From contig OZ024740.1 in assembly GCA_964016885.1 (NCBI GenBank), positions 298,592,001 to 298,656,000 on the forward strand: DNA of 64,000 nt, written 5' to 3'. The notes beneath the pieces were generated by a model. That model was not told the origin of the DNA. It searched no databases and saw only the letters and a list, made by a program, of their open reading frames with translations. The position numbers were made by a program, and so were the translations under genes. This DNA comes from Eledone cirrhosa. Taxonomy: Eukaryota. This document shows, in pieces, positions 5,596 to 59,771 of the stretch; the stretch's first letter is position 1; each line of letters starts with the position of its first letter.

Positions 5596-5657
5596 TTTTA
5601 TTATATATATTTCGAAGGTACTGTGCTGTTTTTTCAGTACGTCCTCGTCAGATAAAA
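5596..5657 (-). ncRNA. Minimal type I hammerhead ribozyme (left pLTR)
   Basis: UUUUAU CUGACGA GGACGUACUG-loop-CAGUACCUUC GAAA UAUAUA UA AUAAAA: complete core, 6-bp stem I, palindromic stem III, AUA site. Confidence 0.8.
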
Positions 5658-6438
5658 TACATGAATTAATGTATGACATAACTCAATGGTCTTGATGGTT
5701 CAATTGGCAGTGATTTATTACAACAAATCTCAATATTTATATACCCCAAATAATAACATGATAAACTTAAATTTAATGAAGAAGAGGATGTGGAGCGAGA
5801 TATAGGTATAAGGAGGAGGTGAGTATGAAGAAATGCAAGAAGAAATAAATAAATAAATACATACATAAATATTTAAATGCGTAAATATACGTGTTAGGGA
5901 AGAAAAAGGAAGAGAGAAGAAGAAAGACGTAACTGACCGTTGTTTTCAAATATTAAGTCAAATAGAAGCAACCAATTAAATACCATGAACATTTTTAATA
6001 TCTTTTGTATTTGGTTATGTTTAAGCTAATTATACTAATATATTATATCAAAATTAAACAATATAAAAATATTTTCTATGATAATCATAAGCATAGTTTA
6101 ATTAATATATTTACTAAATATTTTGTTACAAAATTAAAAAACATTTTTATCTATGAAGCAAGTTTAAATACATATTAAATATCTATTAGGATATTTACTA
6201 CAACCTATGCATATATCACCATCAGTATATGTATTTTATATAATGTTAAGAATTATTATCTGAATTATTCTATTTTCATTATAAAATCATTTCAATTCAT
6301 TGGTTGTCATTTCATTACAGGATTAATAAGTAGTTATATTTACTCTTAAAAGTATTATTATTTCGATTTTACTTCTGTAATTACATCTTATTATATATAG
6401 TTTCCCTTTAAGGATTTTTTGTATATTATTAAACTGTA

Positions 6439-6536
6439 AAATCCCGTTGAGGTTAACTTTGCCTTACGGGGTCGATAAAATAAAGTACCAGTAATACACT
6501 GGATAATTGCTGGCCTTGTGCCAAAAGTAGAAACAA
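6439..6536 (+). mobile_element. 5'-truncated tRNA-derived SINE with target-site duplication
   Basis: Matches the 3' part of the SINE at 15678-15866; flanked by duplicated ttattaaactgta. Confidence 0.85.
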
Positions 6537-6891
6537 TTATTAAACTGTATAAATCATGTTAAATATACATTATCAATCCATTTGAATAGAATTATTTACG
6601 AAGAATGTAAACAAAAGAGGATAACTCGTTCAACTTATGTGATCATTTATGATATTTAAGTGCTTTGAAAGCCAAAAGATATTTCAAACTGCAAATTAAA
6701 AAATTTCTGGTTATACAATGACCATTCTAAATCCGAACTTAAGATACTGAGTCTCATCATGAGATTAATTTACTATATAAAAACGATATACAATTTTTAA
6801 GGTAAGGCAAAACATTATATATATATATATAATAATAATAATAATAATATTTCAAGAATTATTAATAATAGTCAATATTTTTTCTTCATAG

Positions 6892-7260
6892 TCAGTATTT
6901 TTTTTCTAAATTTCTATAATGCTTGAAATGTTGACAAGTTCCGAATAATTCTCTTTTCTTATTAATTAAATTACCATAATTGGTAATTATTAATAGAGTT
7001 TCCAAATTGCAAAGATTGCAATTTGGTGAAATGGAAGCGTTTCGATAGGAATCAGAATTCTTTAGTTTACTCCAAGAAATTGAGTATTTAATATTTTTCT
7101 CTTTTAAAGACCATATTAATTGTGATAATGAATTAGAAATTTTTTTATCTGGATTAGAGAATGTATGTTTGTGATTGAAAAAGCGAAACTTAAAGTTCGA
7201 TGAAGTGGCACCTATGTAGTTATAAGTATTATTATTATTTGTCTTAATGGTACATTTATA
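6892..7260 (-). CDS. Penelope-like GIY-YIG endonuclease, 5'-truncated 122-codon open frame without ATG
   Basis: Manual translation: YKCTIKTNNNNTYNYIGATSSNFKFRFFNHKHTFSNPDKKISNSLSQLIWSLKEKNIKYSISWSKLKNSDSYRNASISPNCNLCNLETLLIITNYGNLINKKRELFGTCQHFKHYRNLEKKY*; shares motifs with the fragments at 29671 and 33018. Confidence 0.88.
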   Translation of the reverse strand, partial: YKCTIKTNNNNTYNYIGATSSNFKFRFFNHKHTFSNPDKKISNSLSQLIWSLKEKNIKYSISWSKLKNSDSYRNASISPNCNLCNLETLLIITNYGNLINKKRELFGTCQHFKHYRNLEKKY

Positions 7261-56402: not shown

Positions 56403-56546
56403 TATGTATGGATGTATGCCTGCCTGTGTGTGCGTGTGTGTCTGCATCATCTGAGCAATTCACTGTCATTCACGATGGAATTCTGTATTTGTAATTGCTG
56501 TTGCTCATTTAGAAACATTACACTCAGAAATAGGATATATATAAAT

Positions 56547-56772
56547 CATCATCATCATCATTTTTATGTCCATTTTTCCATGCTTGCATGGGTTGAATGG
56601 GTCATAGCATCTCTCCACTCGTCGTATCCCTTTGTCATATCCTCTGTGAGTCTCAGTGATTTGAGGTCAGCTCTCACAACCTCTGCCCAGGTCTTTCTTG
56701 GTCTACTTCTACTGTGGCTACATTTCGCTGGCATTCCCAGGCATTTCTTCACTCATCAAGCATTGTCCATGT
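56547..56772 (-). mobile_element. Diverged RTE 3' fragment (similar pieces at ~45395-45560 and ~28334-28490)
   Basis: RSRPRKTWAEVVRADLKSLRLTEDMTKGYDEWRDA plus (cat)n tail. Confidence 0.82.
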
Positions 56773-59526
56773 GCACAGAAATAACAAAGCAGAAAAACAG
56801 TACAATAACATTTTTTTGTACGTTTTTCTAGGTTGAATGGATTTGAAATTGCTCACTTGATTGGCCCGTGTAATTTTCGATGATGGGTGTTCCAATTGTT
56901 TGATTAATGGAACAGCCTGCTCATGAAATTAACCTGCAAGTGGTTGAGAATTCCACAGACACATATACCATTAACATAATTCTCAAAAAGATTAAGCATG
57001 ACACAGGTGCATGGCAACGTTAGCGCTTTCATTATTACATCTCTGTTTTCCTGAAGTAGTAATCGCTACCAACATATCAGGCCAACATCGAATTGCTACC
57101 TTTATGAATTGTACCATTGTGAATCTCTCTTGTATGTCTTTCTCCTACCATTACAACAAAAGTACTTATTACTAAAGTGGTGACCCCTTTCTGTGAAACA
57201 TTTTCAACACCTCCTTGAGGGAAGAAACTTTACTGTTTACACTGACCAAACAGTTTCACACACAAAGCATGGGTCGACATGGGGGCTATAGTAAATGTCA
57301 CTTGTTCAATATGCCATGCAGTAGGGTTAAATCCGGGACCTAATGAATGCAAAGTGAATCTCTCAACCATCTGATCATACAACATCCATGGATTTGAAAT
57401 AATGCTTCTCCAAACATCTGAAGCTAATATTGTTAATTCAACTGTACATCCATATCTCTGATATATGTCTCATATAGATTGTCTTTCATGCAAGAATCCA
57501 GAAGGATTAGCATTGTAACTAACTTCCACATTGTTGAGTGGGTGTTTGGAGCTTAACATAAATCTTTTTACATGAAGTTACGATGGAAGGAGAAACGGTG
57601 AATTGGCAGAGTTGTTAGAACCTCAGATAGAAAGCTTTGCTGTATTTGTGTCAGCTCTTTGCTCTCTGAGTTCAAATTCTGTCATGGTCAACTTTGCCTT
57701 TCATCCATTTGAGGTTGATAAAAAAAGTACCAATCCAGTACTGGCGTTAATTCTTCCACTATATCTCTTTCTCACTTTAATTCTCTCCCTCTCTTTACCC
57801 TTCTTGGGAAGAAATTTGCTGTATTCATATCTGAAAAGGGAATGGGCTCCACCATGTTTAAAAATGCCTTTAAAACACCTTATGTCAATACGGTGCCCCT
57901 ATGACTCCATCAGGAGTTATGGTACTAGAAGATGATGGAAGGGTTTTAGATAAATATGAACACTTTAAAACAAACATCTTTGCATTGTAGAACTGAGGGT
58001 TGGGGTGAGGCATTTTTGTATCAAATACAGCATACAGAACTGAGGTCAAGAAAAACAATGTAGAAACATATTACCTCTCTTGCAATTATTTTACTTGTAA
58101 GATATGCCCTGCATTGGCTTTGTTTACTTTATTACTCTACCATGTGTTCCAGCACCCAGGCTGAGGCACTGCCATTATTATACATATTTTGATTTTATAT
58201 AGACCAATTATTTTGCTGTATGAATATTTCTATCTTCATTATTTAGTCCATTAGTATGGGATTCCTGCAATTTCCTTCCCTTAGTATATTTCTTATTTGT
58301 TACTGCAGCACTAGTAATTTAGGATAACTAATTGCTGTAAAGCTAGCTTTACCAAGGGAGTGAGTGATGAGTATGACAAGAATCTGTCCTGATGCTTTCA
58401 GCATCTCAGCAATTATCCCTGAATGTCTGACAACTTCCAAATGTATTCATCATGTCATTAATTTCTCTGCTCATTATCTCCTCTGGCCTCTGTAGTGGGT
58501 TTCTCTGTTGGCATTATCAGGTGTTGACTTTCTCTATTTTATATTTACACTTTTTCATTGAATAATCTCTCAGAGTGACATATCCTCATCACCAACAATT
58601 CATATTCTAGCTTTGTTAATGTAGTTAGAAATCTTTTCACTATTTTTTCTTTTGTCATGAAAATAAGAATAATTTTTCAATATTAAAAAGAAAAAAAATT
58701 ATCCAATGGTTTTAGCAGTATTTTCATATGGGTGAAAGTCTCTCCTTGAAACTATTGTAATGTAAATTTAATTGCAACTTTAGCCTTGTGAGGCTTTTAA
58801 GTGTCAGTACTTACCATATATACTTGTGTATAAGTACACACACCCATTTTATCTATGAAAAATGGACAAATTTCCAAACCTAGATGGCATGGTTTTTTAA
58901 ATTACTACAAGTGGAAAATATTTTTATGAAGTTTTAATATTTTGATATTTGAAAGGTTTTTGAGTGTCGTTTAGAGTATAGTTTTTGTTTCACAACATCA
59001 TTACTTAATGATTTTACCATTTCATCTGTTTTATATAGGTTTCTTAAATTTTTGTTTACTTCCTTTTAGCAAACAACAATAGTGCTATCTTTTGAATGTA
59101 CCAGGTTTTTATTTAACATACAAATTGAGTGAAATATATGCCATAAAAAACTTGGAAATAATTTAACATCCAATGAGTAGATCAATTTTTGTGAAGTTAT
59201 TAAAGCTTTATCTAGTGAACTTGATACCCATATATTGTACAATAGGAAAATAAAAGCTTGAGTGAAAAAATAACTTGAATGTATTATTCTCAAAATAATT
59301 AAAAACACAAATGTTTAATTCACATTATTTTCAATAAATATGTACACAATAAATATGCATATATATATATATATATATATATATATGTGTGTATGTATTG
59401 GTTAAGTGTATAACTACAGTTACAGGTTGTGTGCCATTTGAAGCACTCGATGCTGTTAAGAGATCCAACTCATGTTGAGTTTTGTATTCAAGAGTTAAGG
59501 TGACTGTAGTGTGCAAAGTGTAAATA

Positions 59527-59771
59527 AAGGATTGAAGTCACTGTTGCAGCATATATATTACAATTGTTTCAATATTGATCAGCTCAGGGTACAATCATAA
59601 TGACTGTGGCCTGACTTTTACTTGACATCTCATCAGGTATGTGAGTTTATATGTGGAAAGACACATCCTGGCCAGGACCTGACTCTTACTCAACATTATG
59701 AATGTACCCTGAGCTGATCAGTATTGAAATGATTGTAATATATATATGCTGCAACAGTGACTTCAATCCTT
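59527..59771. repeat. ~75-bp inverted repeat overlapping a decayed minus-strand hammerhead (59554-59641)
   Basis: aaggattgaagtcactgttgcagc...agggtaca / tgtaccct...gctgcaacagtgacttcaatcctt; minus strand CUGAUGA GAUGU...AUAUU GAAA CAAUUG UA. Confidence 0.8.

Follow-up and report, generated by a model that had tools for sequence, protein, structure and literature searches.

Hammerhead motifs in truncated Penelope-like elements and in protein-free repeat units of a 64-kb stretch of the Eledone cirrhosa genome

Minimal type I hammerhead ribozymes have been described in the pseudo-long terminal repeats (pLTRs) of metazoan Penelope-like elements (PLEs), with about 4,000 minimal motifs in the coelacanth and about 9,000 in Xenopus (Cervera and de la Pena, 2014; PMC4209133), and a link between PLEs and the non-coding hammerhead repeats known as retrozymes has been proposed (bioRxiv 10.64898/2026.07.22.740005). 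The satellite 2 repeat of newts combines a hammerhead with a promoter of the small nuclear RNA (snRNA) type (Coats, Zhang and Epstein, 1994, cited in PMC2220036). For octopuses, a 2026 repeat annotation lists Penelope-like families, and a search of its text returned no mention of ribozymes (PMC13282606); our search of the open literature on octopus hammerhead ribozymes found no relevant work by title. The stretch considered here, hereafter the window, comprises 64,000 nucleotides of Eledone cirrhosa (OZ024740.1, positions 298,592,001 to 298,656,000; contig C1 of a 3.0-Gb assembly), AT-rich animal DNA that abounds in (TA)n tracts and repeats. Its hammerhead-like motifs are, very probably, type I hammerheads in the 3' repeats of eight families, of which two are truncated PLEs and four are protein-free units likely to have been copied by PLEs.

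The descriptor used throughout required a CUGANGA core, a stem II of at least 2 bp, GAAA, a near-palindrome, UH and a stem I of at least 4 bp. Eight motifs in the window pass it, with cores at 5651, 30540, 30866, 32848, 33934 and 43535 on the minus strand and at 31894 and 35162 on the plus strand. Comparison with dinucleotide-shuffled sequence, which a preliminary description of this DNA had proposed, gave means of 0.04 (whole window) and 0.05 (1-kb blocks) and a maximum of one motif in 300 shuffles of each kind. Eight of the ten sites which that description had listed as complete or near-complete are recovered, and the other two each miss the descriptor by one position: at site 8881 the third pair of stem I is a C-A mismatch, and at site 32643 core position 3 is U instead of C, a variant present in 8 of 20 copies of its family (G below). 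These copies keep G8; the published variant of core position 3 is U3-A8. All eight stem III palindromes had been read correctly. The sites are not all independent, as 5596 and 8881, 30502 and 30828, and 33859 and 34560 are in each case the two ends or two units of one insertion. By masked self-BLAST and genome searches, the ten sites together with 34560 reduce to eight insertions of eight repeat families. A Rfam scan of the window yielded no hammerhead family among the 150 of 293 matches listed, which are dominated by TA-hairpin microRNA models.

Two of the families, A and H, are joined to coding sequence.
5501-7260, minus strand: family A, 5'-truncated Penelope-like element; GIY-YIG frame 7260-6892, then 3' untranslated region (UTR) and pLTR; 80% DNA identity to locus L048.
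5596-5657, minus strand: family A hammerhead in the 3' pLTR; core 5651, palindrome ATATATAT, predicted cut after 5602.
7259-8994 (7259-7566 and 8684-8994), plus strand: inverted pLTR of the family A insertion, split by the 3' copy of an RTE-like long interspersed nuclear element (LINE) at 7566-8684.
8881-8942, plus strand: second family A hammerhead; core 8887, one stem I mismatch.
32777-33350, minus strand: family H, 5'-truncated autonomous PLE; GIY-YIG frame 33338-33018.
32815-32852, minus strand: family H hammerhead; core 32848, palindrome ACAATTGT, predicted cut after 32819.
29620-30298, plus strand: older PLE stub related to family H; GIY-YIG frame to 29994, 3' UTR, probable decayed hammerhead at about 30149-30190.

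The motifs at 5596 and 8881 are thus the outward-facing ends of a single family A insertion that a LINE fragment later split. Among loci fetched from the genome (L numbers), the family H hammerhead lies about 170 nt past the GIY-YIG stop, a distance that is fixed in all 14 loci anchored on the family H GIY-YIG sequence, and the family A hammerhead is present in 8 of 11 loci anchored on its own. Locus L169 carries a 585-aa frame with a GIYRDD motif like that of reverse transcriptases (RTs) and a C-terminal endonuclease, flanked by direct and inverted hammerheads, and the order RT then GIY-YIG endonuclease within a single open reading frame recurs in L172-L175 and L045. Translations of L169 and L045, examined by eye, show a CxCX5C linker and CxxC plus CxH around a conserved E and N, with no CCHH. 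DKT was found in one of five loci examined (L048, a family A locus with broken frames) and RWK in none of the five. Copies of families A and H have a pLTR with a hammerhead, a partial tandem or inverted flank, and a one-sided tail. Because their hammerheads are linked to GIY-YIG frames, and given the RT-endonuclease frame of L169, both families are 5'-truncated autonomous RT/GIY-YIG elements with Hydra-clade motifs. First-look genome searches gave 54,573 and 49,183 candidates for the family A and H proteins (150 scored each), and the PLE proteins have 308 relatives at E<=1e-20, nearly all of them unnamed. A seemingly longer frame of 799 aa on contig C8 was rejected as mostly translated (TA)n.

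The remaining families have a different make-up.
30339-30977, minus strand: family B insertion, 1.9 tandem copies of a 338-bp non-coding unit; 3' end on (TA)n.
30502-30547, minus strand: family B hammerhead 1; core 30540, ATGCAT, predicted cut after 30509.
30828-30873, minus strand: family B hammerhead 2; core 30866, ATGCAT, predicted cut after 30835.
33375-33551, plus strand: third family B stub, beginning within stem II (half a hammerhead).
31585-32218, plus strand: family C insertion, partial tandem of a non-coding unit of about 420-450 bp.
31888-31930, plus strand: family C hammerhead; core 31894, ACTAGT, predicted cut after 31924.
33553-34635, minus strand: family D insertion, partial tandem of a non-coding unit of ~700 bp; its second hammerhead, 34560-34635, is without the 5' strand of stem I.
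33859-33938, minus strand: family D hammerhead; core 33934, ACCCCATGGGGT, 49-nt domain II, predicted cut after 33863.
43426-44126, minus strand: family E insertion; 43957-43426 is the 3' 530 bp of the 2,816-bp non-coding unit, and 43956-44126 (plus strand) is an inverted piece that bears a one-sided tail.
43482-43539, minus strand: family E hammerhead; core 43535, ATGATCAT, predicted cut after 43486.
34939-35319, plus strand: family F stub, 5' limit uncertain; hammerhead 35155-35214, core 35162, ACCACTGGT, predicted cut after 35207.
32641-32780, plus strand: family G stub; hammerhead 32643-32678, U at core position 3, palindrome ACGT.

Families B, C, D and E consist of head-to-tail non-coding units of 338, ~430, ~700 and 2,816 bp, each with one type I hammerhead, and a search of three PLE proteins against these units gave no match at E<=1. 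Genome candidates number 3,023, 617, 2,360 and 1,687, respectively (40 scored each), and one 26-mer of family B has 1,015 exact matches in the genome where its reversed control has none. Family B carries an inverted 5' piece in 62 of 89 loci, taken in positional order on contig C1, 57 of 99 of its arrays stop at three TA-like sites, and a TA or CA run lies 36-298 nt from the cut site at the 3' ends of 8 of the 9 window sites. We liken the copies of families B-E to the PLE insertions described by Craig et al. (2021; PMC8557442) because of their partial tandems, inverted 5' pieces, one-sided tail (E) and 3' ends on (TA)n. The suggestion in the preliminary description that several hammerhead-carrying, non-autonomous families depend on Penelope machinery accordingly finds support for B, C, D and E, which are non-coding and bear PLE scars, and fails for A and H: the motifs with ATATATAT and ACAATTGT, assigned there to non-autonomous families, are both 3' ends of truncated autonomous RT/GIY-YIG elements.

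Family E stands out by its size and uniformity. A full unit in L166 (3574-6844, contig C4), 2,816 bp long and non-coding, contains 70-bp repeats and a 510-bp segment duplicated internally (89%), and it forms a partial tandem with a 2-kb inverted flank. As all 40 scored genome matches are 100% identical over 275 nt, the family must be very young; it is a large non-autonomous element of PLE type that was apparently active very recently. Six sequencing runs match 43426-43955, none of them RNA among those listed, and contigs from four sequencing runs of unknown kind on 43432-43955 show no joints or ends that bear on expression.

How exceptional the window might be was gauged from 80 evenly spaced 10-kb stretches (800 kb) scanned with the same descriptor. 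Motifs total 85 and fall in 29 of the stretches, whereas none of ten shuffles has more than one; weighting by contig class leads to an estimate of ~3.0 x 10^5 motifs in the genome (bootstrap 1.8-4.4 x 10^5), or ~100 per Mb, in ~1.7 x 10^5 insertions. The motifs of the window had been called dense, and so they are relative to shuffled sequence; relative to the genome they are not, as eight or more motifs in 64 kb would be expected with P ~0.32 and seven or more insertions with P 0.085. The window is an ordinary sample of the genome, and its class of element is already known. The clustering reported for 30-35 kb does hold, in that 30-40 kb has five strict insertions of five families where none of the 80 stretches exceeds three, the window having been chosen after the fact; nesting within (TA)n is the likely cause of this mixed cluster. 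Only 2 of the 85 sampled motifs have a PLE frame fragment within 2.5 kb upstream, as judged with three PLE queries, and most genomic copies are dead stubs. The sample also includes long arrays of identical units (L217, L209, L218 and L225), the classic form of retrozymes. Hammerhead units of 310 bp (ACGCGT) run in identical-copy arrays outward on both strands from one centre in L217 (4045-9164), L209, L183 and L092; L218 and L225 hold arrays of 466-490-bp units of a sister of family C, in which stem I shows a double change from U-G to G-U relative to family C of the window.

Families B and C share a further feature upstream of the hammerhead.
30591-30640, minus strand: family B predicted promoter, upstream of hammerhead 1; octamer 12-mer 30640-30629, TATA from 30596.
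30966-30917, minus strand: family B predicted promoter of hammerhead 2; same octamer-TATA module.
31805-31853, plus strand: family C predicted promoter; octamer 12-mer 31805-31816, TATA from 31848.

The 12-mer, TATGCAAAT(G/T)AG, lies 99 (B) and 88 (C) nt upstream of the core and is followed by TATA 43 (B) and 42 (C) nt further on. In the host, this 12-mer stands at -76 to -78 in three U6 loci (with one change in one of them) and in RNase MRP, followed by TATA after 46-48 nt, and it is absent upstream of four U2 genes. In the 800-kb sample it occurs 16 times against 1.0 expected, 11 of these occurrences coming from two arrays; 12 have a core within 135 nt, and three of the others were assigned to these families by eye, leaving one that was not. 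Octamer, TATA and core are conserved blocks in five diverged units, and transcription is predicted to start 16-26 nt ahead of the core in both families. The module is thus a candidate internal promoter resembling that of host U6 and MRP. It is not U6-like in every respect: the spacing between octamer and TATA is 4-5 nt shorter than the 46-48 nt of the host, and runs of T, which would be expected to act as oligo-T terminators, reach 7 in C and 6 in one B subfamily, though no more than 3 in the majority unit of B. Both features argue that the module is not simply copied from U6. RNA polymerase II promoters, too, can consist of an octamer and a TATA box. CCAAT, CACGTCAC or TATA words are seen upstream of the hammerhead in D, E and the AGTACT family (window region 33941-34120, 43640-43680 and L181), and other families may carry internal promoters of the RNA polymerase II type. 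The host U6 genes form a tandem cluster (~1.8-kb spacing; C19:31.78-31.84 Mb), as do those of U2 (~2.2-kb spacing; C3:307.35-307.45 Mb), and two U6 copies have an insertion resembling a short interspersed nuclear element between octamer/TATA and gene. Our search of the open literature found nothing on a retrozyme promoter with an octamer.

The stem III palindromes are also more than an artefact of the descriptor, since with the palindrome filter removed stem III is self-complementary in 81 of 104 hits, compared with 10 of 87 in 30 shuffles. Clustering of 356 distinct hits from 1.76 Mb of loci gave 28 clusters of at least two and 40 singletons; the 27 clusters present in at least two loci use 21 palindromes, and 24 of them are at least 75% self-complementary. 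As a hairpin, stem III has a predicted energy of +0.4 to +6.0 kcal/mol in six of the eight window families (D, -3.7; none possible in G), and as a dimer helix -1.7 to -24.4 kcal/mol. The families with ATATATAT, ATGCGCAT and ATACGTAT are related, with near-identical stem I, and differ by double changes that keep self-complementarity. That related families exchange base pairs and remain palindromic indicates that self-pairing of stem III is under selection, and the palindromic stem III fits the modelled dimers of the published double hammerhead (PMC4209133; PMC6765202).

The 5' ends were surveyed in 99 family B arrays from 89 loci selected by a motif just 3' of the cut site. The ends scatter over more than 400 nt, with 3 of 99 within 3 nt of a cut site, and eight arrays, one of them poorly aligned, continue past the upstream unit's cut site; microhomology blurs a small cluster of ends at -26 to -34. 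Family B therefore lends no support to the idea that 5' ends accumulate where the RNA is cut or where transcription is predicted to start, and the position of the ends, together with the arrays that run through, indicates that the copied RNA often has uncut or re-ligated sites. The scatter agrees with the report that hammerhead core mutants insert normally, that the hammerhead needs protein and that reverse transcription starts inside the RNA (PMC11167929), and circles remain compatible with it. We envisage that a tandem copy would be transcribed as RNA longer than a unit, in families B and C probably from the octamer-TATA promoter within the unit. The PLE protein would nick (TA)n DNA and prime reverse transcription inside the RNA at TA-like sites; synthesis would halt at variable points, with frequent template switches creating the inverted flank. 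Fresh (TA)n-rich ends might then draw further insertions, leading to nests such as that at 30-35 kb. Motifs of the same family would pair through palindrome and stem I and cut slowly, perhaps assisted by protein; pairing of two motifs is predicted because a short stem III folds poorly within one molecule. Cutting would most likely be a side route, to RNA of unit length or to circles, and not the step that fixes the 5' end of the copied RNA.

Several observations weigh against this reading. None of the non-coding families could be matched to an autonomous partner, such that their dependence on PLEs rests on scars, and the count of family B arrays that stop at TA-like sites may be inflated, as alignments can run a few bases into (TA)n. 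Pfam returned no family match for the PLE frames, the 585-aa frame of L169 included, so that the RT and endonuclease domains were assigned from motifs, and an intact full-length PLE frame is absent among the fetched loci, the longest clean frame being that of 585 aa. Families F and G might derive from autonomous elements that have escaped notice. Each is a short stub in 20 of 20 loci, with no tandem junction seen, and an upstream PLE frame fragment in sense orientation occurs at one of the 20 F loci and at none of the 20 G loci. Unconstrained folding yields all three helices only in family F, the others favouring rival pairings as monomer or dimer. A stem I difference between the two B copies that might pass for compensatory is confined to 1 of 59 copies and has the appearance of CpG decay.

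That the motifs arose by chance, in DNA rich in AT and in repeats, might be argued from the frequency of bare CUGANGA cores (38 in the window and 25-27 in shuffles) and from the two supposedly decayed sites that are not hammerheads. The excess of complete motifs in the window (8 against 0.05) and in the 800-kb sample (85 against 0-1), and their recurrence in high-copy families, refute this for complete sites, and we give it practically no weight. A much stronger contender, albeit one we lean against, is that the non-coding families are rolling-circle retrozymes, in which dimeric cleavage is essential, a host ligase closes circles, and reverse transcription round the circle makes tandems. Retrozyme RNAs in circular form have been reported from coral, mussel and axolotl (PMC7229834), all ten further units of L217 match the first at 310 of 310 bases, with 17 motifs outward on both strands, and the run-through arrays and the B dimer of the window span two cut sites; in addition, 5' ends become sparser upstream of the second cut site (14, then 7 per 100 nt). 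Uncut linear multimers would account for the same copies, however, and family B seldom exceeds two units. Rolling-circle copying would in any case be an addition to PLE-driven copying and does not exclude it. It is also conceivable, but in our view unlikely, that the motifs are retained for structure or protein binding (packaging, RT recruitment), or hitch-hike on PLE ends, with no useful cleavage. PLE hammerheads are weakly active in vitro (PMC4209133), 8 of 9 Xenopus dimers failed to cleave (bioRxiv 10.64898/2026.07.22.740005), insertion is independent of cleavage (PMC11167929), and the 5' ends of family B are not stacked at the cut site. Against this stands the retention of core, UH and palindrome in 27 divergent families, although the filter itself imposed core and stem I.

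Stem I of a double hammerhead is, like stem III, intermolecular. It might be supposed that palindrome and stem I together are selected barcodes by which each family cleaves only with its own kind. With thresholds that we set at 2 kcal/mol and 4 bp, none of the 28 pairs among the eight window families is predicted to be compatible, and 22 of 351 pairs among the 27 families are blocked by the palindrome alone, including the same-stem-I relatives with ATATATAT and ATGCGCAT. However, 308 of the 351 pairs are blocked at both stems, as plain divergence would lead one to expect (another eight are blocked at stem I only), 13 stay compatible, and palindromes are reused between families: ATATATAT and ACTAATTAGT in three each, ACTAGT and ACAATTGT in two each. 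Tandem transcripts would favour pairing in cis anyway. The idea of the preliminary description that palindromes limit dimers to self partners therefore stands as a predicted exclusion of strangers and is not supported as a selected function: blocking is mostly redundant, palindromes are shared and divergence alone suffices, which makes selected barcodes improbable. A search of the open literature found no work on heterodimers of Penelope hammerheads. We likewise give little credence to a broader scenario, of dozens of self-promoted ribozyme RNA parasites of up to 2.8 kb that compete for Hydra-clade enzymes, form circular RNAs and bear selected self-codes in stems III and I. PLE-driven copying, with cleavage as a side route, remains the reading that we prefer.

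Other remnants in the window are older or less complete.
627-670, minus strand: decayed hammerhead of a family with a 4-bp stem III; CTGACAA core, intact in L048, L091, L097 and L249.
728-778, minus strand: decayed hammerhead overlooked in the preliminary description; core 772, GGAA for GAAA.
55493-55535, plus strand: decayed family G relative, 77-79% identity.
59530-59778: old inverted insertion with a probable decayed long-stem-II hammerhead, core 59636 on the minus strand.

Seven decayed sites had been proposed earlier. Those at 634-667, 34560 and 55497 are supported by homology to intact families, and those at 30149, which follows a GIY-YIG stop, and 59554, which resembles the L185 family by eye with no BLAST match, are plausible. 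The other two drop out: site 11165 belongs to another repeat whose relatives are without CUGANGA, and site 14797 lacks a core and has no relatives among 255 loci. The former repeat, at 11042-11260 and 32508-32642, is a common family (50 matches in the fetched loci), into one copy of which family G inserted. A near-complete RTE-like LINE occupies 1881-5445 on the plus strand, with copies at 7566-8684 and 10553-11024; it has an endonuclease frame and an 859-aa frame with RVT_1 and a PHD-like finger inside, its 3' end lies in (GAT)n, and its 3' 150 bp are repeated as many short copies. Minisatellites of 74 bp (20 copies, 25196-26658) and 67 bp (5 copies, 13106-13559) are without hammerhead cores, and long near-perfect DNA hairpins lie at 60637-60748 (TA/CA-rich centre) and 44358-44458.

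The role of hammerheads in PLEs and the copying of animal retrozymes by PLEs are open questions in the literature. This genome offers material for addressing both: by estimate some 300,000 motifs, a density well above the published counts; 27 families that use 21 or more different palindromes; units that encode no protein and yet bear Penelope scars; a 2.8-kb non-coding family that is very young and has identical copies; and a candidate promoter in two families.

With the hammerheads of PMC4209133, those described here share the type I layout, the short stem I, palindromic 15.2-16.2 and loop 3, the many variable families per genome, the prevalence of solo motifs and opposite-strand pairs, and the predicted action as dimers. 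They differ in that palindromes reach 12 nt and domain II 62 nt, and in scale: our estimate of ~300,000 compares with ~2,000-9,000 motifs per genome in that survey, a rough comparison given the different descriptors, and ~100 motifs per Mb with 126,247 in the 28-Gb axolotl genome (PMC7229834). The autonomous elements have in common with the C-terminal EN+ PLEs of the Hydra clade (Craig et al., 2021; PMC8557442) the CxCX5C linker, CxxC/CxH in the endonuclease, hammerheads and (TA)n targets, as well as the inverted 5'-truncated flank and the one-sided tail; DKT is seen in one of the five loci (family A). The RWK motif of that clade was not found in the five loci here, and the likeness is one of motifs; moreover, the clade as described there is small, with few families, compared with ~50,000 first-look candidates here for each GIY-YIG query. 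The protein-free families resemble metazoan non-LTR retrozymes (PMC7229834; bioRxiv 10.64898/2026.07.22.740005) in their non-coding tandem units of a few hundred bases, their one type I hammerhead per unit and their proposed mobilisation by PLEs. B, C and D are within the reported retrozyme sizes (~150-450 bp, with a maximum of 972 bp), and E, at 2,816 bp, is outside the range of 51-972 bp. In the preprint of Li, Clavereau and Pollet (2026) the case for PLEs is built on their co-occurrence with retrozymes and on homology between pLTRs; here the scars of PLE insertion are seen directly. Like newt satellite 2, families B and C would be hammerhead repeats with an internal promoter built as a host snRNA promoter; unlike it, their module is an octamer 12-mer plus TATA as in U6 and MRP, at a spacing 4-5 nt shorter. 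The window is well explained by the known hammerheads of PLE pLTRs together with non-LTR retrozymes, and our findings leave the class of element unchanged; what they add is the scale, the Hydra-like drivers, the scars on non-coding units, the young 2.8-kb non-coding family and the candidate internal promoter.

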